Below, piece by piece: positions 2,980 to 42,657 of a stretch of DNA of 64,000 bases. The notes under the pieces were generated by a model. The model did no database searches and had not been told where the DNA came from. It was given only the letters and a program-made list of their open reading frames with translations. Both the position numbers and the translations under genes were made by a program. Positions within the stretch are counted from its first letter, which is position 1. Each line of letters starts with the position of its first letter. Origin of the DNA: Thermoanaerobaculia bacterium (lineage in GTDB: Bacteria > Acidobacteriota > Thermoanaerobaculia > Gp7-AA8); contig DATLFC010000074.1 of NCBI GenBank assembly GCA_035525015.1, positions 3,277-67,276 of the forward strand. The letters are read 5' to 3'.

Positions 2980-3798
2980 TCATGACACCCGCTCGAGAAT
3001 CGGGCCGATCAGATTTTCCGGAACTTTGATCGTGCCGAGCGTCTCGGAAGCCTTTGCCGAACCGTGATCGTCCGACCCTCCGGTGATGAACTTGCCGCGA
3101 AACCGGGCCATGTTCTGGTACATGTCGCGATCGCCGGCCGGTACGTCGGGATGCATCGCTTCCACCGCGTCGACGCCGGAGTCGAGAACCTTCGCCACCA
3201 GGCGGGCGTGATCGGGATAGAGAGAAGGATGCGCCACCGATGTCACGCCGCCCGCGCTCCGGATCATCGACACCGCCTCGGCGATGCGGAAGCGCTCTTT
3301 TTCGACATAGGCCGGCTTTCCGGTTCCGATGAGGGTGTCGAACGCCTCGGCGACCGAGCGGGCGTGTCCACGCTCGACCAGCGCTCGCGCGACGTGCGGA
3401 CGCCCCACCGCTCCTCCTGCCGCCAGTTCATCCACGCGCTCGTGGGCGATGTCGTAGCCGAGTGTCCGGAGCTTCTCGACCATGGCTCTACTCCGCCGCT
3501 CGCGCATGCTGCGGAAGGAGCGGAGACGGGCATCGATGGCTTCATCGTGAGGATCGAAGGCGTAGGCGAGGATGTGGACGTCGACTCCTTCGAACGCGCA
3601 CGACAGCTCGATGGCCGGGATCAGCGTCACCCCGATGCCGTCAGCGTACGGCTTTGCTTCGAAGTACGCGGCCAGGTTGTCGTGATCGCTGATGGCGACG
3701 ATGTCGATTCCATGGCTCCGCGCCACGTCGACGACTTCGCGCGGAGTGCGCGTCCCATCGGAGTGGTGCGTGTGCGTGTGAAGATCTGCGTAGCGCAT
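2980..3798 (-). CDS. PHP-family metal-dependent phosphoesterase
   Basis: The N-terminal HTHTHHSDG motif is typical of the PHP (polymerase/histidinol phosphatase) domain. Confidence 0.7.
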   Translation of the reverse strand: MRYADLHTHTHHSDGTRTPREVVDVARSHGIDIVAISDHDNLAAYFEAKPYADGIGVTLIPAIELSCAFEGVDVHILAYAFDPHDEAIDARLRSFRSMRERRSRAMVEKLRTLGYDIAHERVDELAAGGAVGRPHVARALVERGHARSVAEAFDTLIGTGKPAYVEKERFRIAEAVSMIRSAGGVTSVAHPSLYPDHARLVAKVLDSGVDAVEAMHPDVPAGDRDMYQNMARFRGKFITGGSDDHGSAKASETLGTIKVPENLIGPILERVS

Positions 3799-3883
3799 GA
3801 ATCGGGGCTCGGGGCTCAGGGCTCAGGCAAGAGGGAGGGCGGTGGGGTCTGAGCCCCGAGCGCCGAGCCCCGAGCCCCGACTC
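3799..3883 (-). terminator. GC-rich imperfect palindrome built from CGGGGCTC repeat units, immediately 3' of ileS
   Basis: cggggctcggggctcagggctcagg ... ctgagccccgagcgccgagccccgagccccg forms arms of about 25-30 bp. Its position after the ileS stop suggests a terminator or attenuator hairpin. Confidence 0.45.
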
Positions 3884-6694
3884 CTAAACCGTCGCGGGCG
3901 TGACGAGCTCATCGAGGACACTTTGGCAACGCGCACAAACCGCTCCCTCCACGTGGACCTCCTCGCGGTACTGCCAGCAGCGGCCGCACTTCTTTCCGCG
4001 CGCCGGCTTCATCGAGACGGCGATCCGGCCCAGTCCTTCGATGTCGACGGCGTCGGTCGCGCTGTCGTCCGGCGGCCGGAAGTCGACGTGCGAGACGATG
4101 AGGAGCTTCGCCAGGTCGACGTTGACGCTTCCGAGCAGCGCCTCCGGCGACATCCTCGTGTGCAGGACGATGTCCGCCTCGAGCGACTGCCCGATCTGCT
4201 GCACGGCGCGCGCGCGCTCCAGCACCTTCGTGGCCGTCTCGCGGACACGGAAGATGCGCTGCCAGGCCTCGACGTCGGCGTCGGGGAGCTTCGCTCCTTC
4301 GAGTTTCTCGAAGTCGGCCAGGTGAACCGACTTCTCTTTCTGACCGGGCATGGCCTCGTAGATCTCCTCGGCCGTGAAGCTGATGATCGGAGCCAGCGTC
4401 GTCACCAGTCCCCGCAGAATCCGGTACATCACCGTCTGCCCTGACCGGCGCGCCAGCGAGGCGGGTCCCTCGCAGTACATCGTGTCCTTCGACGCGTCGA
4501 GGTAGACCGAGGAGAGGTCGACCGTGCAGAGGTCGACGATGCGGTGGTAGACGGCGTGAAACTCGTAGTCGCCGTACGCTTTCTGGCAGCGTTCGAACGC
4601 CCGTGCCGCGCGATCGAGGATCCAGCGGTCGATCGGCAGAAGCTGCTCGACCGGGAGCGCCGCGGCCGGGTCGAAGTCGTAGAGATTCGCCAGCAGATAC
4701 CGCGCTGTGTTCCTGATCTTCCGGTAGGCCTCGGCGATGCGGGCGATGATCTCCTTTCCCAGCGCCATGTCGTCGCGGTAGTCGATCATGGCCACCCAGA
4801 GGCGGAGGATGTCGGCGCCATTCTGCTTGACGATGTCCTGCGGCGAGACGACGTTGCCGAGGGACTTCGACATCTTGCGCCCCTTCTCGTCGACCACGAA
4901 GCCGTGGGTGATGACCTGCTCGTACGGCGCGCCCCCCTCGACGCCGACGCCGATGAGAAGCGAGGACTGGAACCAGCCCCGATGCTGATCGTGCCCTTCG
5001 ACGTAGACGGCCACCGGCCAGCCGAGCTCCGGGCGAGCTTTGCAGACGGCAATGTGCGACGAACCGGAGTCGAACCAGACGTCGAGGATGTCGAGGTCCT
5101 TGCGGAACGAGGTGCTGCCGCACCTGCATGCGTGGCCGGCCGGGAGGAACTCCTTCGCGTCGTGCTCGAACCAGGCGTCGGCGCCTTCGGCGCGGAACAG
5201 TTCCGTCACTCTGCCGAACAGCTCGAGGGTCGTCACCGGCTCACTGCACTGCTCGCAGTAGAGAACGGTGATCGGAACACCCCAGAGCCGCTGCCGTGAG
5301 ATGACCCAGTCCGGGCGATTCTCGAGCATGCCGGTCATCCGCTCCTGACCCCAGTGCGGCACCCATTTCACCTTGCGTACTTCAGCCAGCGCCCGTTCAC
5401 GAAGCTTCGTCTCCTCCATGCTGATGAACCACTGTTCGGTGGCGCGGAAGATGATCGGGTTCTTGCAGCGCCAGCAGTGCGGGTACTGGTGCGTGAGCGA
5501 TTCGGAAAAGACGAGCACGCCGCGCTCGCGGAGATGCTCGACGATCAGCGGATTGGCCTTGAACACGTGCATGCCGGCCCAGAGAGGCACGTCGGGTGTG
5601 AACTGACCGCGATGGTTCACCGGCGTATAGATCTCCAGACCATACCCGCGGCCGGTGTTGAAATCGTCGGCACCGTGTCCCGGCGCGGTATGAACCAGGC
5701 CGGTGCCCTGGTCGAGCGTCACGTAGTCGCCGAGGAGGAAGACTCCTTCCCGTGGCAGGAAGGCGTGGCGGTAACGGAGGTGCTCGAACGCGGAGCCGCG
5801 GAACACCTTCACCACCTTGTATTCGCCCCATCCGAACTTCTTCGTCACGCCGGCGACGAGGTCGGCGGCCACGATGTGGTTCGCACCGTCATGCTCGACG
5901 ACGGCGTACTCGAAGTCCGGCTTCACGACGATGGCAAGGTTGGCGGGAAGCGTCCACGGAGTCGTCGTCCAGATGACGGCGTAGACCGGTTTCTCGATCG
6001 GCAGATCGAGGCTCTGTACCGCCTCGTCCGTCAGGCGGAAACGGACGTACACCGATGGCGAGGTGTGCTCCTCGTATTCGACTTCCGCCTCGGCGAGCGC
6101 GCTCTGGTCGTACGTACACCAGTGCACCGGTTTGAGTCCCTTGTAGACGGCGCCCGTCTCGAAGTAGCGGCCCAGTGCGCCGGCGATGTCCGCCTCGTAG
6201 TCGAAGGCCATGGTCATGTACGGGTTGTCCCAGTCCCCCAGGACGCCGAGGCGGATGAAGTCGTCGCGCTGGATGTCGATGTACTTCGCCGCGAACTGAC
6301 GGCAGGCGCGGCGAAACTCGGCCGCGCTCATCTCTTTCTTCTTCCCGCCGAGCTCTTTTTCCACGGCGAATTCGATCGGCAGGCCATGGCAGTCCCAGCC
6401 GGGAACGTAAGGAGAGTCGAAACCCATCATGGTCCGGGACTTGACGATCATGTCCTTGAGGATCTTGTTCAGTGCATGGCCGATGTGAATTTTGCCGTTT
6501 GCGTACGGAGGACCGTCGTGCAGCACGAACTTCGGACGGCCGCCCGACTTCTCGCGAAGGAGCTTGTAGATACCGATCGTCCGCCACTGTTCGAGCCACT
6601 TCGGCTCGTTCTGCAGTAGGTTCGCCTTCATGGCGAACGACGTCTGCGGAAGATTGAGTGTTTTCTTGTAGTCGCTACTGCTCGATACGGCCAT
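3884..6694 (-). CDS. ileS: Isoleucyl-tRNA synthetase
   Basis: 936 aa. Class I aaRS KMSKS motif (KMSKSLGN), an editing-domain region, and a C-terminal zinc finger (CGRCW...CARC). Confidence 0.95.
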
Positions 6695-6736
6695 GGTGAC
6701 CGGCCAAACTAGCAGTGGCAGGTGCCTATTTCAAGG

Positions 6737-8086
6737 CTACATGCCGCCGGCGGTGAGGCCGCGCGGCGGCGTTACGCGCAGCTTCTGGCCGGGTTGGAGT
6801 ATCGCGTCCTTCCGCAGATCGTTCAGCTCGCAGAGGTCGCCGACGCTGAGCTTGTGCTTCCTGGCGATCGCGGACAGCGTGTCTCCCTTGCGCACGGTAT
6901 GGAAGACGTCCTCGTCGTCGGCGTGGCGAAGGAGCGTCCCCAGGCGGCGGGCGTTTACCGGAACGTAGATCGAGCGGCCGGCGCGCAGCGAGTCACCGGG
7001 GCGGAGATCGTTCATCTCGAGAATCGTCCCGGGCTGCGTGCCGAACCTGCGGGCCAGTCTGGTCACCGTATCGCCTTTGCGCACGACGAGCGCGGCGACG
7101 TCGATCTCCGTGTCGTCCTCTCGGAGCGTCGCGGCCACTTCCGCCAGGAGAGGGGCCGCAGCGGCGGGGACGGTCACGTTTCGCCGGCCCGGCGGCACCA
7201 GGCCGCGGTGCAGCGCCGGGTTCAACTCCTGCAGCTCGCTCTCGCTGAGGCCGGCCGACCCGGCCAGGAATCGGAGCGAGAGCGGTCCGTCGACGGTGAT
7301 GGTCCCCAGATCGGCGGGCGCGTGAGGCTCGAGGCGGAAACCATAGGCCTCGGGATCCCCGGCGATGTGCAGCGTGGCGTAGAACGTCGGAACGTATCCC
7401 CGCGTCTCCTTCGGCAGCGCGCTCCTTTCCAGAAGCTCCCAGAAGGTGGTTGCGCCGGTGCTCTCGAGCGCGCGCCGCACCCGGCCGGGGCCGCAGTTGT
7501 ATGCGGCGAGCGCCAGGGACCAGTCGCCGAACTCGCGATACAGATCGGTAAGGAAGGCGGCCGCCGCGGCGGTCGACTTCTCGGGATCGGCGCGCTCGTC
7601 GATCCACCAGTCGACACGGAGGCCGTACTCGCGCGCGGTCGCGGGCATGAACTGCCACAGCCCGTGTGCGCCGGCGCGCGAGGTGAGAGTGGGGATGTAA
7701 GCGCTCTCGATGACCGGCAGGTAGGCGAGCGCCTTCGGCAGTGCGTGCTCATCGAGAATGGCGTCGATCATGCTGCGGTAGCGCGTTGCTCGAAGGAGCG
7801 AAGTCTGAATCTTGTCCCGCAACGACGTGGAGAAGTATTGGACGGCTCCGTGGATCGAACGATGATCCGGCATCGGGATCGAGGCGGCTGCCTCGACGTC
7901 GACCTCCGGTCCTGATCCGGGGTGCTGTTCGCGGGCGACGATGCCGCCCCAGGCCAGCTCGAGGTCGCTCCGGAGCACTTCCGGATCGGCCGGCGTGGCG
8001 CGCGGCGGATCCGATGAAGGTGGGGTGGCCGTCACGCACGAGACGCACAGCAGCGCCACCGGCAACAGCCATCGTCTGTCCATCAT
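6737..8086 (-). CDS. mltD: Lytic murein transglycosylase with two C-terminal LysM domains (MltD-like)
   Basis: Signal peptide MMDRRWLLPVALLCVSCV. SLT-domain motif ESAYIP...GLWQFMPATAREYGL. Two LysM repeats (VRKGDTVTRLARRFG, VRKGDTLSAIARKHK). Start moved to the MMDRR codon. Confidence 0.8.
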   Translation of the reverse strand: MMDRRWLLPVALLCVSCVTATPPSSDPPRATPADPEVLRSDLELAWGGIVAREQHPGSGPEVDVEAAASIPMPDHRSIHGAVQYFSTSLRDKIQTSLLRATRYRSMIDAILDEHALPKALAYLPVIESAYIPTLTSRAGAHGLWQFMPATAREYGLRVDWWIDERADPEKSTAAAAAFLTDLYREFGDWSLALAAYNCGPGRVRRALESTGATTFWELLERSALPKETRGYVPTFYATLHIAGDPEAYGFRLEPHAPADLGTITVDGPLSLRFLAGSAGLSESELQELNPALHRGLVPPGRRNVTVPAAAAPLLAEVAATLREDDTEIDVAALVVRKGDTVTRLARRFGTQPGTILEMNDLRPGDSLRAGRSIYVPVNARRLGTLLRHADDEDVFHTVRKGDTLSAIARKHKLSVGDLCELNDLRKDAILQPGQKLRVTPPRGLTAGGM

Positions 8087-8126
8087 CCCCCTCCCCATCC
8101 CTCGGCTGTCGACTTCTGAAGGACCG

Positions 8127-9335
8127 CTACGACTGGTCGACCCGCAGGTTGACCGATACGGCGTGAACATCGGCCGTATCCCCGAGCTCGACGCGCTCCG
8201 ACTGCTCATGGACGACGTCGTCGCCGTTCTCGAAGGATACCGTAACGCGCATGGCACGGGCGCCCGAGAGCGTCTCCGGCGGAACGGCCAGATTGATGGC
8301 CTTCTGAATCTCCCGGCCGACGCCGCGCGGGATGTCGGGCTTCGGAGCGGCATTCTTCTTCTTCTTGAGCTTGGGAGACGAAGAGGTGGCGCGCTTTCGC
8401 AGCGCCTCCAGCTCGGCCATGACGTCGATCGTCGACCGCACTTTCACCGTTTTCACCGGCGGCTTTTCGGGCACCGGCTCCACCGCTGCATCGCCGCTCC
8501 GCTTTTCCTCCGTCCGTCCGGAGGCGACGCCCGCCCCGACCGGCTCCATCGCTTCTTCACTCTCACTGAGCTCTTCGATGAGCTCCTCCACCGCCCGCGC
8601 GCGATCGCCGCCGCCGAACGATGGTGTGACGACGTTGGCCGATGCTTCCGGTTTTCCGGCAGCCTCGGGCCGTGGTTGTTCCTTCATGCGGAACTGCGCC
8701 ACATCGCCGAGCGTCCGGGCCGTCGGCCGGGCCGGCTCATCGCCCGTCATGCGGCGGCGCAGCGTTCGCAGCGTCAGCTTCGAGATCAGCTTCAGGGTCT
8801 CGAACACGCCCGTCCCGATCGACGCCACCGACTCCACGACTTCGTATTTCCCCTCCGGATCGAGAGCCTGCACCATCGACTCGGCGGTGGCCACGTTCGG
8901 CAGATCGCGTTTATTCAACTGGAGGATCAGCGGGATCTCGTCGAGCACGAGCCCGATCTCGGCCAGGTTCTCGCGCAGATTCCTGAAACTGTCGATGTTC
9001 GCGTCGAACATCGCCTGCTGCGAATCGGCGACGAAGACGATGCCGTCGACGCCTTTCAGCACGAGCTTGCGCGTCGTGTTGTAGAACACCTGTCCCGGAA
9101 TGGTGTAGAGCTGCAGCCGGGTCTTGAAGCCGCCGATCACGCCGACGTCGATCGGAAGAAGGTCGAAAAAAAGCGTCCGGTCCGTCTCGGTCTCCAGGCT
9201 GACCATCTCCCCGCGGCTTCCGGGTGAGGTCTTGGCATAGATGTGGTGGAGATTGGTCGTTTTCCCGCAGAGACCAGGACCGTAATACACGATCTTGGCC
9301 GCCATCTGCATCGTCGCGTAATTGAAGAAGACCAT
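8127..9335 (-). CDS. MglA/SofG-like Ras-family small GTPase with ~200-aa C-terminal extension
   Basis: The N-terminal 195 aa align with motility GTPase MglA (MVFFNY..KIVYYGPGLCGKTTNL..ETDRTLFFD..QLNKRDLP). The tail is a Pro/Glu/Ala-rich linker, a KKKK patch and a ~70-aa terminal domain. Start set at MVFFNY. Confidence 0.8.
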   Translation of the reverse strand: MVFFNYATMQMAAKIVYYGPGLCGKTTNLHHIYAKTSPGSRGEMVSLETETDRTLFFDLLPIDVGVIGGFKTRLQLYTIPGQVFYNTTRKLVLKGVDGIVFVADSQQAMFDANIDSFRNLRENLAEIGLVLDEIPLILQLNKRDLPNVATAESMVQALDPEGKYEVVESVASIGTGVFETLKLISKLTLRTLRRRMTGDEPARPTARTLGDVAQFRMKEQPRPEAAGKPEASANVVTPSFGGGDRARAVEELIEELSESEEAMEPVGAGVASGRTEEKRSGDAAVEPVPEKPPVKTVKVRSTIDVMAELEALRKRATSSSPKLKKKKNAAPKPDIPRGVGREIQKAINLAVPPETLSGARAMRVTVSFENGDDVVHEQSERVELGDTADVHAVSVNLRVDQS

Positions 9336-9386
9336 CCGAACAGGCTCCGGGACCCGGTGCGAAGCAGCGATCGATGGTAGCACCCG

Positions 9387-10139
9387 CTACTTCGGGGTCG
9401 CAAGGCGGGCCGAGGTGATCCAGGCGGCGAGAAGTTTGTACAGTTCTGCAACTTGCGCGTCATCGCCGATCGCGGAGACGTGCCGCGCCATGACCTCCTC
9501 GTCCCCTCGTGCGGCCGGTCCGGTGAAGCGCCGGGCGTCGTCGTGAGCTTTCCAGTTTTGAATGGCCGATTCGGCCAGGGCGACCAGGTCCCGGCGGACA
9601 TCGCCGGCGCCCGCGCGGCGCATCAGATCGGCCGAGACGTCGAGCACCGCGGCGACATAGTTCGCACCGAAGACGGCGGCGGCGTGGTAGAGCGGCTTCT
9701 GCTCGGCCGTCACCTCGGCGAACCGCGCGCCGACCGCCGTGGTGATGAGTCTCGCCGTTTTCGGGTGTTCCCCCTGGAATACCAGCAGCGTATCGGCGAG
9801 ATCGGATGGCTCGCCGACCGGTGGCAGCGCCTTCAGCGGATGGAGCGAGAACCCCCCGGCCGGCGCCGCCAGCGCGCCGCTCGAGTGGAAGATGATCGCT
9901 TCGCCAGAGGGGATCTTCGCGACGATCCCATCGACCGCCCTGTCGCTGACCGCCACGAGCAGCAGTTCCGCCTCCGCGGCGAGCTGGTCGACGTCGCGGC
10001 GGCGAGCGCCCAGCAGCTCCGGCAGGCGGCTTTCCGACTCCGGCCGCAACCAGACGCCGGACAACGGCCATCCGATCCGCAGCCATGCCGTCCCCCAGGC
10101 CCATGCCGCGCGGCCGCCACCAAGAATGCCGAGACGCAT
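9387..10139 (-). CDS. Rossmann-like NAD(P)-binding / DUF2520-family protein
   Basis: N-terminal GxGxxA dinucleotide fold (LGILGGGRAAWAWG) and a C-terminal DUF2520-like region. Confidence 0.55.
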   Translation of the reverse strand: MRLGILGGGRAAWAWGTAWLRIGWPLSGVWLRPESESRLPELLGARRRDVDQLAAEAELLLVAVSDRAVDGIVAKIPSGEAIIFHSSGALAAPAGGFSLHPLKALPPVGEPSDLADTLLVFQGEHPKTARLITTAVGARFAEVTAEQKPLYHAAAVFGANYVAAVLDVSADLMRRAGAGDVRRDLVALAESAIQNWKAHDDARRFTGPAARGDEEVMARHVSAIGDDAQVAELYKLLAAWITSARLATPK

Positions 10140-10157
10140 CGTATCCTTAGAGTAACC

Positions 10158-10186
10158 GGTTCACGGTGAACCGTTCACCGTGAACC
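10158..10186. promoter_or_regulatory. Tandem palindromic operator-like sites GGTTCACGGTGAACC / GTTCACCGTGAAC
   Basis: Two abutting perfect inverted repeats (GTTCAC-N-GTGAAC) in the 54-bp divergent intergenic region. They lie 8 nt upstream of the ATG at 10194. Confidence 0.4.
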
Positions 10187-10193
10187 GTCTGTC

Positions 10194-10541
10194 ATGAAAC
10201 GCTTCGTCCTCGCGTTCGCACTGTTTGCGGCCCCGCTCCGGGCCGCGCCGCCGACCACCTGTGGCCTGCCGGACGACTATTCGCGCGCCCTCTGCGCTTA
10301 CCAGCAGCGTGATTTCGGGACGGCGGAACGGGTATTCGGCTCGATCGTCGATGCGGGGGAGGAAGCGCCGCAGACTTTGAAGGGGATGTACTTCCTGGCG
10401 CGGACGTACATGAAAACCGGGCGGTTTGATGAGGCTGCCGGGCTGCTGGTCAGAATCTACGAGACCGATCGGACGTTTTACGGCAGCTGGAGTTGCGACT
10501 TCCTGCTGGGAGAGTGCCGGAGGGCGCTGGGGAAGGATTAG
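10194..10541 (+). CDS. Small secreted TPR-like protein
   Basis: Signal peptide MKRFVLAFALFAAPLRA. Short helical repeat region. Its stop abuts the downstream EBP start (taGATGccg). Confidence 0.5.
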   Translation: MKRFVLAFALFAAPLRAAPPTTCGLPDDYSRALCAYQQRDFGTAERVFGSIVDAGEEAPQTLKGMYFLARTYMKTGRFDEAAGLLVRIYETDRTFYGSWSCDFLLGECRRALGKD

Positions 10542-12068
10542 ATGCCGGCATCGAACTTCGAACTTCGCCGAAAGCTGCTGCAACTCGAGGCGCTCCACGA
10601 CCTCGGCCGGGCGCTGAACACGCTGCGGCCGGAGGCTGAGCTCCTGGAGGAGCTGATGCACCGGGCCATCGCGGTGCTCGACGCCACGACCGGCTTCATC
10701 TTCTCGCTGGATGAAAAGCTCAACATCCAGCACCTCTTCACGTTTCCTACCGAGCCTCCCCGCGCCGATGCCATCCTGGCCGAGCCTCCGGTGCGGCAGG
10801 TCCTCGCCGCGCGCGAGCCGATCTCGGTCACCGTGACGCGGTTCCTGGGGGAACAGGCGAACGATCTGCTGGTCGCGCCCATGGTGTCGGGCGACGTGAT
10901 CGTCGGCGTGATCGGCGTGGGCGGCAAGGAGGCTCGCGGCGCGAAGAGCGGGAGCTTCGTGGAGGACGATCTCCGCTTTCTGGCCTCGCTGGCGTCGATC
11001 GGAGGCGCCGCCGTCGACAATACGCGGCGCTTCCACAGGCTCGATCTGGTGCGCGAGACGCTCGAAGACGAGAATCGTTCCCTCAAGCAAAGGATGCTGC
11101 GCGAGTACAGCGACCGCTTGATGGTGGGCGAATCGCCGAAGATGCAGCGAGTGATCGATCTGGTGGCACGGGTCGCCAACAGTCAAGCCAACGTTCTCAT
11201 CCGCGGCGAATCGGGAACGGGGAAAGAAATGGTGGCGCGCCTCATTCACGGCAACTCGTCGCGCAAGGATCGGCCCTTCGTGGCCATCAACTGCGCCGCG
11301 CTGCCGGAGACGCTGCTCGAATCGGAGCTGTTCGGCATCGAGCGTGGCGTGGCCACCGGCGTCGAGGCACGCCCCGGCAAGTTCGAGCTGGCGAAGGGCG
11401 GGACGGTCTTCCTCGACGAGGTGGGCGACATTCCTCTCGCTCTCCAGGCCAAACTGCTTCGCGTGCTCCAGGAACGGGAGGTCGAGAAGCTCGGCGGGCG
11501 GCGTCGGATCCCGATCGATGTCCGCATCCTGTCGGCGACGCATCGCGGCCTCGAGGAGATGATCGAGAAGGGAGACTTCCGCCAGGATCTGTATTACAGG
11601 CTGAAAGTGGTCGAGATCACACTGCCGCCCCTCCGCGAGAGGAGGGAGGACATTCCCCGGCTCGTCCGCTTCTTCCTCGAGAAGTACGGGCGCCGCGAAG
11701 GTCTCAAAGACGTGCGCATCACGCAGGAGGCCCTCCAGAAGGTGATGCGATACCCCTTTCCCGGGAACGTGCGCGAGCTGGAGAACCTCATCGAAGGGGC
11801 TCTGGCGCTGACCGTGGATCCGGTCATCGATCCGGGGGATCTGCTCCTGCCGGAGTCGGCGGCCGGCACCGACGGAGGGGAACTGACGGGCGACTTCCCC
11901 CCGCTCGAAGAGCTGCAGAACCGATACATCGCCCGGGTTCTGGCGCACACGAAGGGGAACATGTCGGCCGCGGCGAAGATCCTCGGGATCGACAGGAAGA
12001 CCCTCTACCGGAAACGGGCAGAACTGTCCCATCTAGGCACATCTGGGGAATCTTGGGACGTTCACTAG
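10542..12068 (+). CDS. Sigma-54-dependent transcriptional activator (GAF - AAA+ - Fis HTH)
   Basis: N-terminal GAF-like domain. AAA+ sigma-54 interaction motifs (GESGTGKE, GAFTGA-like ESELFG, DEVGDIPLALQAKLLRVLQE). C-terminal helix-turn-helix. Confidence 0.9.
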   Translation: MPASNFELRRKLLQLEALHDLGRALNTLRPEAELLEELMHRAIAVLDATTGFIFSLDEKLNIQHLFTFPTEPPRADAILAEPPVRQVLAAREPISVTVTRFLGEQANDLLVAPMVSGDVIVGVIGVGGKEARGAKSGSFVEDDLRFLASLASIGGAAVDNTRRFHRLDLVRETLEDENRSLKQRMLREYSDRLMVGESPKMQRVIDLVARVANSQANVLIRGESGTGKEMVARLIHGNSSRKDRPFVAINCAALPETLLESELFGIERGVATGVEARPGKFELAKGGTVFLDEVGDIPLALQAKLLRVLQEREVEKLGGRRRIPIDVRILSATHRGLEEMIEKGDFRQDLYYRLKVVEITLPPLRERREDIPRLVRFFLEKYGRREGLKDVRITQEALQKVMRYPFPGNVRELENLIEGALALTVDPVIDPGDLLLPESAAGTDGGELTGDFPPLEELQNRYIARVLAHTKGNMSAAAKILGIDRKTLYRKRAELSHLGTSGESWDVH

Positions 12069-12227
12069 TAACCGCTGTGTATTCAGCAATTACTGGTCCA
12101 AAACTCCTGTCACAGCAGATGTTGTGGCGAATTGACCCAACGGCTGTCTCAGAGGTTGCGTGAGCCAGTCTCGTGTAAACTACGCATGGTCAGAAGGTTA
12201 GGAGGGACAGGACTGATCCGGCATGGG

Positions 12228-12242
12228 TGGCAGTCGCGTTGC
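12228..12242 (+). promoter_or_regulatory. Sigma-54 (-24/-12) promoter candidate TGGCAG-N5-TTGC
   Basis: tggcagtcgcgttgct has GG and GC with exact 10-nt spacing. It lies 35 nt upstream of the GAGGGGGG Shine-Dalgarno and ATG of the small-peptide ORF, directly downstream of the EBP gene. Confidence 0.6.
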
Positions 12243-12276
12243 TCAACGGTGACCTCGACGAATGAGGGGGGAACCG

Positions 12277-12444
12277 ATGAGCAATTACGCACAAGCCCGC
12301 GCCAAAACCGAGTCGCTGCTCAGCGCCAGCTACGTTCTGCCGTCCGTGCTGGCTGTGAACACCGTGGCGCTCTTCGCGCTCGACCGGGTGGGAGGAATCC
12401 CGCACTGGATCAAGACGGCCGCTGCCCTTTTCCTCGCCTTCTGA
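12277..12444 (+). CDS. Small hydrophobic membrane peptide (55 aa), first gene of sigma-54 operon
   Basis: A strong RBS (gaggggggaaccgATG) and a hydrophobic sequence LPSVLAVNTVALFAL...AAALFLAF. There is no homology call. Confidence 0.4.
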   Translation: MSNYAQARAKTESLLSASYVLPSVLAVNTVALFALDRVGGIPHWIKTAAALFLAF

Positions 12445-12472
12445 GCTCTCCCCGCGCCCGCAGGACACTCGG

Positions 12473-12925
12473 ATGACCATGACCGCCGAGCGGCAGATGG
12501 AGCTCACCCTCCCGATGGTTCCGGACATCGAGATCGCAGCCGCGCGCGCGGCCGGCAATCTGGCCCGGGAAGTGGGGATGAGCGCCGAGAAGATCGACGA
12601 GATGGCTCACGCGATCATCGAGGCCTGCATCAACGCCCGCGAACACTCCTGTTGCGCCGATCAGCGCATCTACTTAAGATTCGTCGGCACCTACCAGGGC
12701 GACGGCAATCCGCGGATCGACGTCTGGATCACGGACCATGGTCGCGGATTCGATCTGGCCGAGGCACGCACGCGCCGGAAGAAGCTCGGCCCCGCCTACA
12801 AACGAGGTCGCGGCATCCAGCTCATGGAAGCGCACATGGACGAGGTGGAGATCATCAGCGGGGAAAGCGGCACCACCATCCACATGGTGAAGCTCGAGAA
12901 TCCCGCAGTCGAGAAAACATCATGA
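12473..12925 (+). CDS. Anti-sigma regulatory factor (Ser/Thr kinase), RsbW/SpoIIAB-like
   Basis: GHKL/HATPase N box (EACINAREH), G1 (DHGRGF) and G2 (GRGIQLM). Confidence 0.8.
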   Translation: MTMTAERQMELTLPMVPDIEIAAARAAGNLAREVGMSAEKIDEMAHAIIEACINAREHSCCADQRIYLRFVGTYQGDGNPRIDVWITDHGRGFDLAEARTRRKKLGPAYKRGRGIQLMEAHMDEVEIISGESGTTIHMVKLENPAVEKTS

Positions 12926-13278
12926 CCGAGGAATTGAGAGTCGCTGTCGAACGACGCCCTGCCGGAGCCATCCTCTACACCAAGGGGTACATCAACAACG
13001 TCGGTGGCGAGGAGATCGCCAACCGCGCCTACGAGCTGATGGATGACGGCGTCCAGACCCTGCTGCTGAACCTGAAGGAAACGAAGATCGTCAACTCGAT
13101 CGGCATCAGCATCCTCATCGAGATCATCGAGAAGATGATGGAGAAGGGAGGCCGTATCTCGTTCTGCTGCCTCACCCCCGTCATCCACAAGACCTTTCAG
13201 ATCATGGGGCTGGCCAATTACGCCGCCATTTACGACACCGAGGACGCGGCGACCAAGGACCTCGGCTTCCAGCGCTGA
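12922..13278 (+). CDS. STAS-domain anti-sigma factor antagonist (RsbV/SpoIIAA-like)
   Basis: 118 aa. Its start overlaps the upstream stop (ATGA). The fold matches SpoIIAA/STAS, with the phosphorylatable Ser region NSIGISIL. Confidence 0.8.
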   Translation: MTEELRVAVERRPAGAILYTKGYINNVGGEEIANRAYELMDDGVQTLLLNLKETKIVNSIGISILIEIIEKMMEKGGRISFCCLTPVIHKTFQIMGLANYAAIYDTEDAATKDLGFQR

Positions 13279-13313
13279 GCAGGATCCGCTCTCGGACTGA
13301 TATTCTCGTCCCC

Positions 13314-14942
13314 ATGCCTCAGGTGCACCGGTTCGCGGATTTTCTGACCGACCTGCAGCAGATCGACCGCACGTCCATCGATGCGCAGGCGTCGAAGATC
13401 GTGGAGGCTTTCGCCCGTCACACGGCCTTCGAGATCAGCGCGTTGTATCTGCGCGATGGCCGCGAACGCTCGATGCGCCTGGCGGTGAAGTCCCAGCAGC
13501 TCGTCGCCCCGGAGATTCTCGATCGCAGCGGCGGGGAGCTCCCGTTCCAGCCACGGCCGCACCTCGTTCTCCCGCTCATCAGTCATCGCGAGGAGCTGGG
13601 ACTGCTCGCGCTCACGCGCCGCGGACCGGAGGAACCGAGCGAGGATGATGTGGCGCTCGTTCGCGCGGCCGGCCACTACCTCAGCACGATCATCGCCAAC
13701 CAGCGCCTGCTGCAGGAAACGAGGGAAGGGGAGTTTCAGCTCAAGTACCGCCTCTGGGAGCTGGAGTCGCTGTACGACATCGGCCTCTCCATCGCCTCGA
13801 CGCTGAACATCGACGAGGTCGCGGACGAGATCCTCTTCCGCATGATCTCTCTGATCAACGCCCGGCGCGCCGCGCTTTTCCTTCGCCAGGGCGAACGGTT
13901 CGTGCTCTTCCGCTCGTTCGGCGCCGTGCGCGGCGACTTCCTCGATCAGGACCTCGCTTCGGCGCTGATGAAGGAAGGGCAACCCATCCGCTTCGAGGAG
14001 CACCTCGAGTGCATCTTCCCCGGCTGCTCCGCGTTCGTCGCCGTTCCCGTTCGCGGCAACAACAGCATGGTGGGGATCCTCGCAGCGGCCGATCGGGAGA
14101 GCCGCGATGGCACCATCGGCCAGTTCGAGCCGAACGAGCTTCGCCTTCTCGGTCTCTTCGCCTCCCAGGCCGCGATCGCACTCGAGAACGCCCGGCTGCA
14201 CCGGGAAGCCCTCGAGAAACAGGCCATGGACCGCGACCTCGAGCTGGCCGCGACGATCCAGCGCGACATCCTTCCCAAGGCCATCCCCGTCGTTCCGGGA
14301 CTCGAGCTCGCGGCGCTGTCACGGCCGGCGCGGCAGGTCGGCGGTGATTACCACGCCTTCGTCGAGCGCGATGGCCTCCTGACCATCGTCGTCGCCGACG
14401 TGGCCGGGAAGTCGATGCCGGCGGCGCTCCTCGTGTCGGCGCTCCATGCGGCGGTCCAGCTCCTGTTCGCCGAAGGTCGCGCTCTCGGCGACATCGCCAC
14501 GGAGCTCAACAAACATCTCCACCGCTGGTCGGCCGAGAACAAATTCATCACCATGATCATGGCCTCGATCGATCAGGAATCGGACACGATCGAATACGTC
14601 AACGCCGGCCACAATCCCGGCTACGTCGTCGTGGACGGCAAGCTGGAGATGCTCAAGTCCCAGGGCCTCCCCTTCGGTATTCTCGGGCAGAGCCGCTACA
14701 TGACCCAGACGCGTCCGCTCCCGCGAGGCTCACGCGTTCTCCTCTACAGCGACGGCATCACCGAAGCGGAGAACGTGGCCGGTGACGAGTTCGAGGACCA
14801 CCGGCTGCAGGCGCTCATCGAACGCCACTCTTCCGCCACCGCCGTCGAGCTGCGCGACCGGATCGCCGAAGCCGTCGAGGAGTTCGTCGGCGAGGCGCCG
14901 CAGAAGGACGATCAGACCCTCGTGATCGCGCGCCGCACCTGA
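13314..14942 (+). CDS. GAF-domain PP2C-type serine phosphatase (RsbU/SpoIIE-like)
   Basis: Tandem GAF-like N-terminal half. PP2C motifs GGDYHAF, VADVAGKSMPAAL and YSDGITEAEN. Confidence 0.85.
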   Translation: MPQVHRFADFLTDLQQIDRTSIDAQASKIVEAFARHTAFEISALYLRDGRERSMRLAVKSQQLVAPEILDRSGGELPFQPRPHLVLPLISHREELGLLALTRRGPEEPSEDDVALVRAAGHYLSTIIANQRLLQETREGEFQLKYRLWELESLYDIGLSIASTLNIDEVADEILFRMISLINARRAALFLRQGERFVLFRSFGAVRGDFLDQDLASALMKEGQPIRFEEHLECIFPGCSAFVAVPVRGNNSMVGILAAADRESRDGTIGQFEPNELRLLGLFASQAAIALENARLHREALEKQAMDRDLELAATIQRDILPKAIPVVPGLELAALSRPARQVGGDYHAFVERDGLLTIVVADVAGKSMPAALLVSALHAAVQLLFAEGRALGDIATELNKHLHRWSAENKFITMIMASIDQESDTIEYVNAGHNPGYVVVDGKLEMLKSQGLPFGILGQSRYMTQTRPLPRGSRVLLYSDGITEAENVAGDEFEDHRLQALIERHSSATAVELRDRIAEAVEEFVGEAPQKDDQTLVIARRT

Positions 14943-22135: not shown

Positions 22136-23482
22136 TCAGCCGGCCGTGAAGTTCCAGCCGCGGATTCGCACCGTGGGAGCCATCGTTCCGCCGAAAGCGT
22201 TGTACCAGGTGCCGATGGCGCGCCGCTCACGAGTCAGACCATCGACCTGTGCGAACGCCTCGACGATCGACTGCGTCCAGCGGAGATTCGGGAGGCGGGC
22301 AGTCACTCTCCCGTCGCGGATGAGGAATGTCCCGTCGCGCGTCGTTCCCGTCATCAGCGCGCTTTTCGGCTCGAGGAGCCCGTTCACGTAATTGAAGCGA
22401 GTGACCCAGATGCCGCGCTCGGTCGAGCGGATGAGCTCCTCACGCGTGGCACCCCCCGGGTCGACGGTCAGATGAAACGCTGCGCCATGCTCGGGTGACC
22501 CGAGATGCCAGGCGTTGCCGGTGGCGGGGATTCCGAGTCGGTCCGACCACGCTTTGTCGACCACCGGCGTCCGGATGACGCCGCGCTCGATCAGCGGAAT
22601 GCGCCGCTTCGGAATCCCCTCGAGGTCGAACGGGAAAGGCATGAACGCCGGATCGGCGGCGTCATCGGCGATGGTCAGCGACTCCGACAGCTTGCGGATG
22701 CCGAGATTTCCGACGAAGAACGAGGAGCCGTCTTCGTAAGACTGGCCACAGAACGTGATCATGTTCATCCAGTCGAGCACTTCCGCGATCGCGGCCGGCT
22801 CGAGAATCACGTCATACCGCCCCGGCTGGAATGCCTCCTGCGAGCCTGAGAGCATCGTCGCCTTCCCGGAGGCCTCTTCCCCCAGCTCCTCGATCCGGAT
22901 GGCCGCGGCGCTGCGGGCGCAGCGGCTGGCGTATCCCGATGTGTTGCCGTGCAGGGCGATGACCGTCGCGTCGGCCAGCGTCGCGCGGCAGAAACGACGG
23001 ACACCGCTCGTGTTGCCACAGGCGACGGCGACGGCGGCGGTGCTGTACGAGCCGGCGAACCGGATCGAAGACCCGGCGCCGCGATCGAACATCGCCCGCA
23101 GCTCGCGCGCTTTGCCGGCCGGCGGCAGCGCAGCCGTGGTCTCGTCGAACGTCGGCAGATCGGGTGCGGCCTCCGTGCCGCCGTAAAGCCCCTGGAAGCG
23201 TGGAAGGGGCCGAGCGTGCCTGGCCGCCTCTCTCGCCAGTGCCGCCGTGCGGCCGATCTCGTCATCATCGAAGGACGTCGTCGACGCCACTCCCATCGCT
23301 CCGTTCACTACGACCCGCAGCGACAGCTCCGCGGCGATCTCGGACATGTTCTGATGAACGTTCGAGTCGGCGAAGCGGCTGATGTTCCGGTCGGTGGCGA
23401 TGACGGCGGCATCGGCCTCGTCGGCCTCCGCCGCGCCGAGGGCGCGCTGCAGGATCTCGAGCGCCCTCGACTCGCTCAGCAT
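22136..23482 (-). CDS. pmbA: TldE/PmbA-family protein (non-catalytic partner of TldD)
   Basis: TldD/PmbA fold without HExxxH. Start MLSESRALEILQ overlaps the tldD stop (TGATG). Confidence 0.8.
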   Translation of the reverse strand: MLSESRALEILQRALGAAEADEADAAVIATDRNISRFADSNVHQNMSEIAAELSLRVVVNGAMGVASTTSFDDDEIGRTAALAREAARHARPLPRFQGLYGGTEAAPDLPTFDETTAALPPAGKARELRAMFDRGAGSSIRFAGSYSTAAVAVACGNTSGVRRFCRATLADATVIALHGNTSGYASRCARSAAAIRIEELGEEASGKATMLSGSQEAFQPGRYDVILEPAAIAEVLDWMNMITFCGQSYEDGSSFFVGNLGIRKLSESLTIADDAADPAFMPFPFDLEGIPKRRIPLIERGVIRTPVVDKAWSDRLGIPATGNAWHLGSPEHGAAFHLTVDPGGATREELIRSTERGIWVTRFNYVNGLLEPKSALMTGTTRDGTFLIRDGRVTARLPNLRWTQSIVEAFAQVDGLTRERRAIGTWYNAFGGTMAPTVRIRGWNFTAG

Positions 23483-24945
23483 CACGCCATTTCTACTCCG
23501 CGAAACCGCGCCGCCGGTGCGCCGTGCGCCACGCGCATCGTCTGCATGGGGTCGCCCTTGCCACAGTTCGGAAGTCCCCATACCTGCCAGCTGGCGGCAT
23601 CGGCGACGGCGTCGCAGGCCCGCCAGAAGTCGGGGGTCGTGCCGGTGTAAACCGGATTCTTCAGGAGTCTGCCGATGCGGCCGTTCTCGATCTCCCAGGC
23701 GATCTCACAGCCGAACTGAAAGTTGAGCCGGACATCGTCGATCGACCACGACCTGTTCGTGTCGATGAGGATGCCGCGAGGCGTGTCGGCGATGATGTCG
23801 GCCAGCGGCGTCGCTCCAGGCTCGAGATTGATGTTCGTCATCCGGATGATCGGGATTCTGGCCGCGCTCTCGGCGCGCACCGTCCCGTTGGAGCGCCGTC
23901 CGATGACCGGCGCGGTGTCGCGGCCGGTGAGATAGGCGACGAAGATCCCGTTCTCCACCAGATGAAAGCGCTGCGCCGGGACTCCGTCGTCATCGAAGGC
24001 AAACGAGCCGATCGCTCCCGGCACGGTGGCGTCGGCGACGATGTTCACCAGGTCCGAGCCGTAGCGGAAGGTTCCGAGCATGGGCGGCTGCAGAAACGAC
24101 CCGCCGGCAAGCGAGATCTCCAGCCCCATGGCCCGGTCGAGCTCGGTTGGATGCCCGCACGATTCATGGACCTGCAGCGCCAGCTGTGACGATCCGATGA
24201 TCAGGTCGCACCGTCCCGCCGGCGCTTTCGGCGCCTCGAGCAGCGCCAGCACCTCATCGCGGATCTGCAGCCCTTTGGCGGGGAGGTCGAGGCCTTCGAT
24301 GAACTCCCACCCCGCCGCCTGGTAGTCGCCGCCGAATGGATTCGGATAGGTGCGGCGCTGGAAATCGCCGTTCGCGATCGCCACGGCGTCGATGCCCCCG
24401 CCCATCTGCGTCGTGGTCTGCTCGAGAAAGCTGCCCGCGGTCGATGCGAAAGCTTTTTCCTGCCGGTAGCAGGAGATCTCGCCCGAGACCTGGTGAATGC
24501 GGCGGTCGCCTCGCATCGGCTCGGTCGCCTCGAGCAGGCGGTCGATCTTTCTGTCGAGCGGGATCGACCAGGGGTCGATGGCAAAGGAAGACGACCATGA
24601 ACCGACGTGCGGCTCGATCTCGCTCAGCGTCACCTTCGCCGTCGAGGCGATGTTGCTGGCGGCCGCAACGTCGAGGGCGCGCCGGGCTGTCGCCCGCAGC
24701 GACTCCTCCGATGTGTCGGCGCTGGCGGCGAATCCCCAGCCATCGCCCACGAGCACGCGCACTCCGACCGCCCGGTCGACCGTCGAGGCCAGGTGATCGA
24801 TCTCGCCGTTGCGGACCTTGATGTGCTGCTGCAGCGTTCGCGTATACCGTACGTCCGCGTAGCGGAGCGAGCGCGCAGGCAGCGATGAGAGAACCTCGGC
24901 GAGCTGGTCTCGCCCCGGAGTCATGCGGTGCGGAATTATAGACAA
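23482..24945 (-). CDS. tldD: TldD metalloprotease
   Basis: TldD/PmbA family with the zinc-binding HESCGH motif. Confidence 0.85.
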   Translation of the reverse strand: MSIIPHRMTPGRDQLAEVLSSLPARSLRYADVRYTRTLQQHIKVRNGEIDHLASTVDRAVGVRVLVGDGWGFAASADTSEESLRATARRALDVAAASNIASTAKVTLSEIEPHVGSWSSSFAIDPWSIPLDRKIDRLLEATEPMRGDRRIHQVSGEISCYRQEKAFASTAGSFLEQTTTQMGGGIDAVAIANGDFQRRTYPNPFGGDYQAAGWEFIEGLDLPAKGLQIRDEVLALLEAPKAPAGRCDLIIGSSQLALQVHESCGHPTELDRAMGLEISLAGGSFLQPPMLGTFRYGSDLVNIVADATVPGAIGSFAFDDDGVPAQRFHLVENGIFVAYLTGRDTAPVIGRRSNGTVRAESAARIPIIRMTNINLEPGATPLADIIADTPRGILIDTNRSWSIDDVRLNFQFGCEIAWEIENGRIGRLLKNPVYTGTTPDFWRACDAVADAASWQVWGLPNCGKGDPMQTMRVAHGAPAARFRGVEMA

Positions 24946-39800: not shown

Positions 39801-40160
39801 CGTGGCGGCGTACATGTCGATGTCGTCTGTCCTTTTCCGCCGTCTGCGGCCTCCGGCGCGCAGCCGCTCCGCAGCCTCGACGGTACTGAGGGTTTCGTCC
39901 CAGAGAATGACCGGTTTGCAGGTTTTTTGCCGCAAGCGCTCGGCGAGGTCGTGGAACTTCTGCTCGCCGGCCGCGCTGCGGGGGCGGCGCGGCAGACCGA
40001 GGATCAGCGTCTCCGCTCCGATCTGGCCGGCGATCTCGGCGATCCGGGCCACCACGTCCCCCTCGTTCCGAAGCACGGAATGAGGAGAGGCCAGGAGACC
40101 GGAGTCGCTGACCGCGATGCCGATCCGCTTCCCGCCGTAGTCGATGGCCATCAGGGACAT
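39753..40160 (-). CDS. ruvX: Holliday-junction resolvase-like RuvX (YqgF)
   Basis: MAIDYGGKRIGIAVSD is the RNase H-like YqgF signature. This is the conserved ruvX-mltG gene pair. Confidence 0.9.
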   Translation of the reverse strand: MSLMAIDYGGKRIGIAVSDSGLLASPHSVLRNEGDVVARIAEIAGQIGAETLILGLPRRPRSAAGEQKFHDLAERLRQKTCKPVILWDETLSTVEAAERLRAGGRRRRKRTDDIDMYAATVILQSYLDARAGRTS

Positions 40161-42556: not shown

Positions 42557-42602
42557 AGTCTGGCTCCGTCTCTCTGCTTTCCGGAGCTCCGACCCCCCAT
42601 GT

Positions 42603-42630
42603 GGGGACGGGCGCCCGATGGCGCCCGTCC
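42603..42630 (-). terminator. Perfect 12-bp GC hairpin between the two pilin genes
   Basis: gggacgggcgcc-cgat-ggcgcccgtccc lies 28 nt downstream of the pilin-1 stop. It resembles an attenuating terminator after a major pilin gene. Confidence 0.55.
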
Positions 42631-42657
42631 CGCTGAACAACTAAAGGGTTCCGGAGG

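Follow-up and report, generated by a model that had tools for sequence, protein, structure and literature searches.

Among bacterial Ras-like proteins, MglA serves as the model polarity switch. The proteins solved from Myxococcus xanthus (MXAN_1925) and Thermus thermophilus (structures 5YMX, 6IZW and 3T12; Group 1 of Wuichet & Sogaard-Andersen 2014) are 195–197 amino acids (aa) long, and 390 of 449 MglAs are coupled to mglB, meaning that a Roadblock/LC7 gene lies within four genes (PMC4316618). The 64,000-nucleotide (nt) stretch analysed here, hereafter the window, is part of contig DATLFC010000074.1 from a Thermoanaerobaculia bacterium and carries a gene that we call mglA-ext. Its product has the same G-domain as MglA proper, at 58–61% identity and with the catalytic, beta2 and pocket residues, but is twice the size (402 aa) and ends in a tail of ~200 aa. 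Instead of mglB, which was found neither in the window nor within 6–10 kb on either side at 168 orthologous loci, the neighbours are a DUF2520 gene and an MltD-like gene.

In M. xanthus the D/E-rich C-terminal (Ct) helix of MglB, held on a disordered tether, binds an MglA pocket formed by alpha5 (K181, K185), beta2 and the beta2-beta3 loop (L64, I67), and this binding promotes nucleotide exchange; the Glu-rich helix of RomR can substitute for it (PMC6785124). MglAs paired with a Ct-helix-bearing MglB have a basic alpha5, and a Ct-helix is recognized as a predicted helix that carries 2–4 D/E residues and terminates a disordered extension (PMC6785124). The product of mglA-ext shares with these systems (Baranwal et al. 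2019, PMC6785124) a short acidic helix on a disordered tether, together with a basic alpha5 and a hydrophobic beta2-beta3 loop in the MglA part. In contrast to the MglB helix, the element lies inside the GTPase polypeptide, has an invariant basic strand before it and a beta domain after it, and reads IDVMAELEALRK where MglB has ISDDDIDNLF; its docking is predicted by analogy.

The general architecture of an extended, MglB-less MglA has been known since 2010 (PMC3000849). Group II MglA2, as described by Fremgen et al. 2010 (PMC3000849), comprises extended MglA-like proteins of 225–327 aa from Fibrobacter (313 aa), Myxococcus (281 aa in M. xanthus) and Geobacter (225/291 aa). Identity to M. xanthus MglA is given in Table 2 of that paper as 44% for the extended paralog of M. 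xanthus itself, about 39–45% for the M. xanthus and Geobacter members and 58% for Fibrobacter. The characterised extended paralog, SofG, interacts with the bactofilin BacP and positions PilB/PilT (PMC4085708). An MglA-family G-domain with an extra C-terminal region and no adjacent MglB is common to MglA2/SofG and mglA-ext, and the Fibrobacter identity (58%) is similar. In contrast, the product of mglA-ext and its orthologs are longer (385–524 aa) and have no N-terminal extension, and the M. xanthus and Geobacter G-domains are far more divergent (39–45%) when compared through these published identities. The tails are not detectably homologous, as judged from an exhaustive tail search of 1.84 billion representatives. 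The first-pass annotation of this gene had called it MglA/SofG-like. The first half of that label holds (58–61% identity) and the second does not, since the extended M. xanthus paralog is at 44% and the N-terminal extension is absent here; 'MglA ortholog with tail' fits better than 'SofG-like' because of that G-domain identity and the plain N-terminus.

MglAs with no MglB at their locus also have precedent. Bdellovibrio bacteriovorus (Milner et al. 2014, PMC3983030) and 'Ca. Koribacter versatilis', the latter from the same phylum (Acidobacteria) as the host of mglA-ext, both have an MglA of this kind, a precedent for MglA functioning without its GTPase-activating protein. The Bdellovibrio protein is a single domain of 197 aa with S21, consistent with lost GTPase control, whereas the product of mglA-ext keeps G21, R53 and Q82 and carries the tail. 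A flexible C-terminal extension with a polybasic cluster is also found in the hypervariable region of eukaryotic Ras/Rho proteins, where it serves localisation; the mglA-ext tail is much longer, has no CAAX or lipidation signal and terminates with a folded domain plus an acidic helix.

The main census of small GTPases in prokaryotes was limited to proteins of 150–240 aa (PMC4316618), and because longer proteins were excluded by design the extended class was never classified there. As far as the searched literature and family databases show, this tail with its invariant motif, its class-wide conservation, the order DUF2520/MltD-like around the gene and the likeness of the motif to the MglB Ct-helix are new. 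Regulation of MglB-less MglAs has so far been addressed only in Bdellovibrio. The family offers a natural experiment within a large lineage of soil and sediment, most of it uncultured: an intact, almost invariant MglA always accompanied by the same tethered motif and never by a neighbouring mglB.

The extended mglA gene and its G-domain

mglA-ext is a single real gene for an MglA-type cell-polarity GTPase followed by a long flexible linker and a small tail module (Table 1). GC3, the G+C content at third codon positions, is 0.76–0.86 in each of four segments of the gene, and the remaining two frames of its strand contain 5 and 11 stops. Since GC3 is even throughout and the other frames are interrupted, mglA-ext is one continuous coding frame. 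The listing of open reading frames (ORFs) also offers a GTG at 9383; we rejected it as the start, all orthologs beginning with MVFFNYATMQM. ATG 9335 is taken as the true start because it has a GGAG motif 9 nt upstream and because the MVFFNY N-terminus is invariant in the orthologs. A split into two genes had been named by the first-pass annotation as the outcome that would undo it; the uninterrupted ORF, the even GC3 and the full-length orthologs all speak for one gene. Its description as an MglA-family GTPase with a C-terminal extension of ~200 aa is borne out by the 402-aa ORF, of which residues 1–196 form a complete G-domain.

Residues 1–194 are collinear, with negligible gaps, with solved MglA structures in a search of PDB sequences (Thermus 3T12, E 3.5e-73; M. 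xanthus 5YMX/6IZW/6H17, E ~1e-69). The G-domain is 61% identical to Thermus MglA and 58% to its M. xanthus counterpart; these two references share 63% identity. The G-domain contains the P-loop GPGLCGKT (residues 19–26, with G19, G21, K25 and T26) and NKRD (N141–D144), and the D52/T54 surface is kept. In LYT78IPG81Q82 a TxxG takes the place of DxxG, and a threonine replacing that aspartate is a hallmark of the MglA family (PMC3000849). T78, G21, R53 and Q82 are all invariant in an alignment of 64 sequences. R53 and Q82 correspond to the intrinsic arginine finger and catalytic glutamine that PMC4316618 and PMC3199381 describe for MglA, and a P-loop G21 correlates with MglB-regulated, GTPase-competent MglAs (PMC3983030). 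The collinearity with MglA claimed earlier for the first ~195 aa, P-loop and NKRD included, is thus seen from end to end, and the catalytic Arg/Gln pair, whose absence would have spoken against that claim, is in place. From these residues mglA-ext appears to encode a catalytically complete small GTPase of the MglA-proper type, and we infer that the product acts as a nucleotide-dependent spatial switch.

The product departs from the family in size: MglA is a single domain of ~190–200 aa, compared with 402 aa here and 382–524 aa in the orthologs. The residues of the allosteric pocket are present as V64, I67, K182 and K186, followed by the basic alpha5 extension LRTLRRRM, and align with L64/I67 and K181/K185 of M. 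xanthus. All 142 full-length orthologs have an alpha5 of the form FETLK.IS[KR]LTLR.L[RK].RM and a beta2-beta3 region of the form LLP[IL]DVG[VI]IGGFKT, so that K182, K/R186, R190 and R/K193–195 on alpha5 are kept along with V64 and I67. Pfam and NCBIfam gave weak, generic small-GTPase matches to the G-domain, below their cut-offs. These sub-threshold matches account for the varied public annotations of such proteins ('MglA', 'SRP receptor beta', 'SAR1 family') and for the lack of an NCBI name. An exact look-up of the window protein gave no entry in the public collection searched.

Tail anatomy, conservation and distribution

The tail was segmented using 81 orthologs, a 64-sequence alignment, an alignment across two clades and two AlphaFold models (AF2), one of the full-length protein and one of the tail only. 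An acidic linker leads to a strand-helix motif, a polybasic loop and a terminal beta domain (Table 1). The linker (17% Glu, 15% Ala, 11% Gly, 10% Pro; net charge -9) varies between 84 and 218 aa among orthologs; it had been called Pro/Glu-rich, which is too narrow, the composition being rich in Glu, Ala, Gly and Pro. In 82 of 121 orthologs the linker contains a short acidic linear motif, [DE][IV][DST]F[AGS][EQ], ~17 aa upstream of VKxVKVRS (EPEIDFSQ, ADVSFAEA, EISFGES). The window protein lacks it and has VEELIEELSESEEAMEP at that place. The motif loosely resembles the SPFAEIS stretch that precedes the MglB C-terminal helix.

The strand-helix motif, which had escaped mention in the first-pass annotation, is the most conserved element of the tail. 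Its consensus is VKxVKVRSxxDVMAELEALRK, and a strict regular expression matched it in 97 of 121 orthologs. Helix 302–317 is predicted in both AF2 models; D304, E308 and E310 vary little or not at all in the 64-sequence and two-clade alignments, and I303, V305, M306, L309, L312 and A316 form its hydrophobic face. Within the polybasic loop the basic patch reported earlier as KKKKNAAPK is found as KLKKKKNAAPK at residues 322–332. A short K/R cluster is kept there in both clades, and the length and sequence of the loop vary. For the C-terminal region, structure prediction, which had been suggested as a check, returned a confident four-stranded beta domain (strands 342–349, 361–370, 373–383 and 393–400, with a short helix at 353–356). 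The compact terminal domain annotated earlier is therefore folded, at ~60 rather than ~70 aa (residues 342–400, predicted local distance difference test (pLDDT) 86–96). Linker and beta domain are net acidic.

Mean pairwise identities, computed over 121 proteins, separate these segments clearly. The G-domain is at 0.80 as a whole (0.94 for residues 1–100, 0.83 for alpha5) and the strand-helix motif at 0.77, compared with 0.29 for the linker and 0.35 for the basic loop plus beta domain. Conservation thus points to the short strand-helix motif, rather than to the KKKK patch or the terminal domain, as the probable functional element of the tail.

Searches for relatives of the tail led back to the same family. 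Pfam placed no family above threshold and, at E<=10, gave only a sub-threshold Rpp20 match to the window tail. The profile of the tail family had no match among all PDB sequences (best E 0.08, a de novo designed protein), nor did the tail model find one in the PDB with Foldseek (best E 0.75). An exhaustive phmmer search with the 112-aa tail against 1.84 billion representatives returned 59 clusters only, in which the match occupies the very C-terminal end of proteins with an MglA part, or of fragments of them. The three exceptions, P0152, P0175 and P0179, were rejected as remote homologs, since they match a hairpin-like stretch through repeats or composition. The tail can accordingly be called a novel module, as the first-pass annotation had proposed: it has no match in Pfam, PDB sequences or Foldseek, and its detected homologs are confined to the extended-MglA family.

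One candidate identity for the tail, a fusion to Roadblock/MglB, was rejected as unsupported: Pfam Robl_LC7 gave no match at E<=10, the MglB hidden Markov model (HMM) did not match the ORF, and the AF2 topology of the tail, a four-stranded sheet with one long helix, drew no Roadblock protein from Foldseek against the PDB or from the PDB profile search. An Rpp20/Alba-like fold is a weak candidate, suggested by the Pfam match to Rpp20 described above, which spans the helix and the strands of the window tail (E 0.0075; 16.6 bits against a cut-off of 24.6). That lone sub-threshold match was not reproduced: the divergent-clade tail had no Alba/Rpp20 match in Pfam, and none appeared in the PDB profile or Foldseek PDB results.

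Relatives were located by a genome scan with one genome per species, which yielded 317 genomes with a relative; counts of genome loci refer to the best 80 of these 317. The best 80 carriers are all Thermoanaerobaculia or unclassified Acidobacteriota metagenome-assembled genomes, and G-domain and tail are fused in 80/80 of their loci, in ORFs of 385–524 aa. At least 142 full-length orthologs fall into two divergent Thermoanaerobaculia clades. The divergent clade has a second tail type, ~30% identical to the first (VKHVKVRSNIDILAELEKLRK ... SVDDLLASSLNHRKE ... LLLSLKFHILGK). Fusion of the MglA G-domain to the tail is the rule in both clades.

A reading in which GTPase and tail are two genes, joined here by an assembly or sequencing error or truly split in relatives, drew on this second tail type. 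A divergent-tail profile retrieved 103 clusters of proteins, all of <=223 aa and some on Mb-scale contigs, and at loci L085–L088 G-domain and tail lie in different frames. However, the long contigs with short tail proteins contain many fragmented genes, and the frame shifts do not recur at one place: in L086 and L087 they fall at differing linker positions, and in L085 within the G-domain. The short proteins have ragged N-termini, some with out-of-frame stretches, and at L084 the gene caller took an internal start though the ORF is open to the contig edge. In short-read metagenome loci of the divergent clade, 66/80 have a complete G-domain and tail in one ORF; the remaining 14 comprise 5 with a partial G-domain, 6 open to the contig edge and 3 with an upstream stop. 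Together with the continuous periodicity of the window ORF, these observations leave the artefact explanation already effectively refuted. A separate tail gene in the sister clade (the 'Rosetta stone' idea) would have argued strongly that the tail is a functional partner of MglA, but it was rejected on the same grounds (indel-prone contigs, ragged N-termini, internal starts and 66/80 single ORFs).

The ~100 database clusters concerned (78–223 aa 'hypothetical proteins', P0172–P0278; L085–L088, ENA ERZ250395xx contigs) are C-terminal fragments of extended MglAs. They appear as stand-alone tails because of indels or contig breaks within the GC-rich, low-complexity linker, and a practical consequence is that ~100 such entries, spurious products of frameshifts there, stand in the databases.

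The strand-helix motif as a candidate regulator in cis

For the MglB search we used M. xanthus MglB (identical to PDB 6H5B chain B) and Thermus MglB as queries, together with a two-sequence HMM. In all six-frame ORFs of the window and of the 168 orthologous loci (~1.5 Mb), tblastn, phmmer and the HMM returned nothing better than E 0.27. In near-complete genomes the Pfam assignments of genes called up to 10 kb to either side showed no Roadblock domain, and the window genes scanned by Pfam gave no Roadblock/MglB match. The absence of mglB from the locus, noted in the first-pass annotation for the window, extends to all of these loci, and by the within-four-genes definition of PMC4316618 mglA-ext is an orphan MglA at locus level.

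An orphan with a complete MglA G-domain could carry its own regulator. Helix 302–317 has the form described for the MglB Ct-helix, with D304, E308 and E310 and a disordered linker before it, and the G-domain has the cognate basic alpha5 and hydrophobic beta2-beta3 loop. We propose that the product of mglA-ext would be an MglA-like nucleotide-dependent spatial switch with a tethered regulatory element in cis. The long acidic linker would present the strand-helix motif (294–317) to the G-domain's own allosteric pocket (K182/K186, V64/I67), with docking either in cis or between molecules. Once docked, the motif would bias nucleotide exchange as well as the beta2 'screw' state, and would in this way give the orphan MglA a built-in regulator. 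The terminal beta domain and the polybasic loop would form a targeting or partner-binding end. The output would probably be the placement of envelope machinery, with type IV pili and/or the wall-cutting sites of the co-encoded transglycosylase as candidates.

The rate at which the motif evolves argues for such a contact. It changes as slowly as the G-domain and alpha5 (0.77 compared with 0.80 and 0.83), while the beta domain (0.35) and linker (0.29) diverge, as would be expected if the motif touched the near-invariant G-domain. We favour docking of the strand-helix motif on the allosteric pocket, with targeting or partner binding left to the beta domain and basic loop, as a possible reading by analogy with MglB, and we hold it tentatively. 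If the tail helix does bind the pocket, the 'acidic helix in pocket' mechanism of MglB and RomR would be general enough to have been captured in cis, and the protein would offer a simple one-protein system in which to study it.

Several observations weigh against this proposal. The MglB-binding beta2 face, DRTLFFDLLP, is conserved, and MglB may be encoded elsewhere in carrier genomes, beyond the searched loci. The hydrophobic pattern of the tail helix is unlike that of the MglB Ct-helix (hydrophobic moment 0.18 compared with 0.38), and the analogy leaves the invariant basic strand VKxVKVRS unexplained. Motif and pocket are both near-invariant and their differences follow the two clades, which leaves covariation no signal. 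The full-length AF2 model is silent on contacts between tail and G-domain, with a pLDDT of ~30 over residues 1–94, where the alignment is invariant. Finally, the hydrophobic face of the helix could pack on the tail's own beta sheet as one alpha/beta domain, and the weak, sub-threshold Rpp20/Alba-like Pfam match spans precisely helix and strands. As an aside on the modelling, this pLDDT was obtained with an ortholog-only alignment over a textbook GTPase fold, for which a diverse alignment can do better.

These last points lead to the main rival, which is nearly as likely as cis docking and, like it, far from secure. Here residues 291–402 would be one alpha/beta domain held off the G-domain by the linker as a leash, binding a landmark, effector or envelope component in trans, while the regulators of the GTPase are encoded elsewhere; the first-pass annotation had inclined to the same idea with its localisation tail, which is one plausible reading. 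The confident fold of the beta domain, the suitability of the hydrophobic helix face for packing on the sheet and the weak Rpp20/Alba-like (beta-alpha-beta-alpha-beta-beta) match fit such a trans-acting tail, as does RomR, in which a linker and C-terminal region are used for polar targeting (PMC3441718). However, a purely structural helix should evolve like the domain it belongs to, which is hard to square with 0.77 versus 0.35 identity and with invariant charged residues, and the partner would need to be as invariant as the motif. The Rpp20 match, moreover, is sub-threshold, absent in the divergent clade and unsupported by the PDB profile or Foldseek.

The polybasic loop and the amphipathic helix might instead bind anionic lipids and act as a membrane anchor in the manner of the Ras/Rho hypervariable region. 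A K/R cluster beside the helix in both clades, preceded by a long flexible leash, would suit this function. The three invariant acidic residues of the helix and its hydrophobic moment of 0.18 are unfavourable for anionic membranes, the basic loop is variable in length and sequence, and both linker and beta domain are net acidic, which together make an anchor unlikely.

Gene neighbourhood and other window genes

The gene lies between a DUF2520 gene upstream and an MltD-like gene downstream, the neighbours assigned to it from the start (the former as a Rossmann protein). A gap of 51 nt separates the DUF2520 gene from the mglA-ext ATG, and one of ~28 nt the mglA-ext stop from the MltD-like start. 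The NCBIfam MltD model matched the downstream product with E 6e-60, under its cut-off.

Table 1. Features of mglA-ext and of the surrounding window (positions in the window; residue numbers refer to the mglA-ext product)
Feature	Position	Strand	Evidence and remarks
Extended MglA coding sequence (mglA-ext)	8127..9335	minus	ORF listing, full-length collinear orthologs, coding periodicity; 402 aa, ATG 9335, TAG 8127-8129
GGAG Shine-Dalgarno-like motif	9345..9348	minus	read from sequence; 9 nt upstream of mglA-ext ATG
MglA G-domain, residues 1-196	8748..9335	minus	PDB sequence matches; P-loop G19-T26, R53, T78, Q82, NKRD 141-144
Disordered acidic linker, residues 197-290	8466..8747	minus	composition, low conservation, many gaps, AF2 pLDDT <50
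Strand-helix motif, residues 294-317	8385..8456	minus	VKTVKVRS-TIDVMAELEALRKRAT: basic beta-strand, then acidic amphipathic helix; near-invariant in both clades
Disordered polybasic loop, residues 320-340	8316..8378	minus	SPKLKKKKNAAPKPDIPRGVG; net charge +6; AF2 pLDDT <50
C-terminal four-stranded beta domain, residues 341-402	8130..8315	minus	AF2 pLDDT 86-96, full-length and tail-only models
DUF2520 protein with Rossmann-like N-terminal domain, 250 aa	9387..10139	minus	Pfam PF10728 E 8.6e-27, PF10727 E 5e-5
MltD-like lytic transglycosylase	6737..8098	minus	signal peptide, SLT, two LysM; Pfam SLT E 5.7e-29, LysM E 8e-30
Small TPR lipoprotein	10194-10541	plus	divergent from the DUF2520-mglA-mltD cluster
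GAF/sigma-54 activator/HTH_8 protein	10542-12068	plus	followed by a 60-aa ORF
RsbW-like HATPase_c_2 kinase	12473-12925	plus	
STAS-like ORF	about 12922-13275	plus	read by eye
GAF-SpoIIE phosphatase	13314-14942	plus	
PilZ-domain gene	16-825	plus	Pfam E 2.9e-6; ~7 kb from the mglA-ext cluster
PilT-size T2SSE ATPase	40231-41376	plus	domain scan
Zinc-ribbon (Zn_ribbon_4/DUF7836) protein, 211 aa			5 nt downstream of the T2SSE ATPase
Two pilin-like genes, N_methyl and T2SSG	42026-43170	minus	domain scan; convergent with the T2SSE ATPase
ruvX-like gene	39753-40160	opposite to T2SSE ATPase	just before the ATPase
mltG/YceG	38677 to about 39750	opposite to T2SSE ATPase	just before the ATPase
Ser/Thr protein kinase (N-terminal) and TonB_C (C-terminal), 661 aa	36648-38633	minus	Pfam E 4e-8 and 1.3e-17
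Run of very large membrane proteins	44715-57419	minus	similar N-termini, MRAPQRHDLLAVALLLLLPTLFFGDVL... and MNGSSRRSDRLAIALLLLLPTLFFADVL...; at least one with YfhO C-terminal match
Probable glycosyltransferase	51753-52562		interleaved among the large membrane proteins
Bacterial type IB topoisomerase (Topoisom_I and Top1B_N_bact)	32333-33382	minus	
DprA	26919-27995	minus	
Tandem PmbA/TldD pair	22136-24945	minus	

In the genome loci the DUF2520 gene lies directly upstream in 79/80, and it does so in the divergent clade as well. A gene with SLT and LysM follows directly on the same strand in 78/80 genome loci; in the divergent clade, nearly all metagenome loci that could be tested have it too. 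This core of DUF2520, mglA-ext and SLT/LysM is kept in both clades though the outer flanks are wholly different: in the window's clade a divergently transcribed TPR lipoprotein/sigma-54 activator/partner-switching set on one side and ileS on the other, in the divergent clade hrcA-grpE-dnaK-dnaJ at one end, with a ChlI/ComM-like gene, an M23 peptidase and secA at the opposite end. A conserved core between differing flanks goes beyond simple local synteny and suggests that the three genes are a functional unit. A scan of 3700–10400 for sigma-70 promoters and terminators gave no signal on the mglA-ext strand, which is weak evidence consistent with an operon.

The neighbourhood raises the possibility that mglA-ext is a cell-wall or morphogenesis switch rather than a motility protein, spatially controlling peptidoglycan remodelling with the MltD-like transglycosylase, presumably transcribed together with it, and in one clade also with the M23 peptidase. 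The conserved core, the short gaps and the lack of a terminator between the genes in the scan all accord with it, and so does the M23 peptidase further downstream in the divergent clade, where the extended mglA thus also has wall hydrolases grouped around it. In M. xanthus, MglA is connected to MreB (PMC4508894). However, MglA is cytoplasmic and MltD periplasmic, so that any link would be indirect, and the gene order may be plain inheritance rather than shared function, all carriers belonging to one class. We regard a dedicated cell-wall switch as rather unlikely. The invariant order with the transglycosylase nevertheless suggests a testable link from a cytoplasmic polarity GTPase to local cell-wall remodelling.

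Combining docking in cis with this gene order gives a wider proposal. A self-contained MglA would have taken in cis the helix that MglB, and possibly RomR, supplies in trans. Needing no Roadblock partner, it would control its own beta2-screw and nucleotide state, and a class-wide operon would connect it to a periplasmic lytic transglycosylase. In its entirety this proposal is doubtful, and we put it below docking by itself; were it true, MglA-type polarity control would be coupled to cell-wall opening in Acidobacteriota.

The first-pass annotation had looked instead to the pilus genes, reading the product as a paralog of the SofG kind, in charge of placing the PilB/PilT ATPases of a type IV pilus encoded some 30 kb away. 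The pilT/pilin module is indeed in the window, with a T2SSE ATPase and two pilin-like genes ~31 kb from mglA-ext, and in three divergent-clade loci a T2SSE gene lies 9–10 kb from mglA-ext. MglA-encoding genomes are reported to carry type IV pilus genes (PMC3000849, PMC3441718). The window further contains a PilZ-domain gene. PilZ-like proteins take part in Myxococcus polarity control. Against this reading, the G-domain is 58–61% identical to MglA compared with 44% for MglA2/SofG in Table 2 of PMC3000849, the N-terminal extension is absent, no bactofilin gene occurs among the window genes scanned and the tail has no detectable homolog outside the extended-MglA family. The conserved neighbours are the DUF2520 and MltD-like genes and include no pilus gene; what joins the pilus genes to mglA-ext is a common 64-kb window. 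The proposed link is not supported, and a SofG-like role is unlikely; a pilus-related output as such is plausible.

The PilZ-domain gene keeps the same relative position and orientation in two other genomes (L081/L082 19896–20867). The plus-strand genes at 10194–14942 form a complete partner-switching module beside an enhancer-binding protein, conserved in the window's clade and not in the divergent clade. In the divergent clade (L086, L087, L088 and the P0203 contig) the SLT/LysM gene is followed by the ChlI/ComM-like Mg-chelatase-family ATPase and the M23 peptidase, and a T2SSE ATPase lies 9–10 kb upstream. Farther away in the window, the run of very large membrane proteins has the look of tandem paralogs from one family of glycan or lipid-linked-sugar transferases. 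The DprA, PmbA/TldD and type IB topoisomerase genes are ordinary, a bacterial type IB topoisomerase being relatively uncommon, and the pairing of a Ser/Thr kinase with TonB_C in one protein is unusual.

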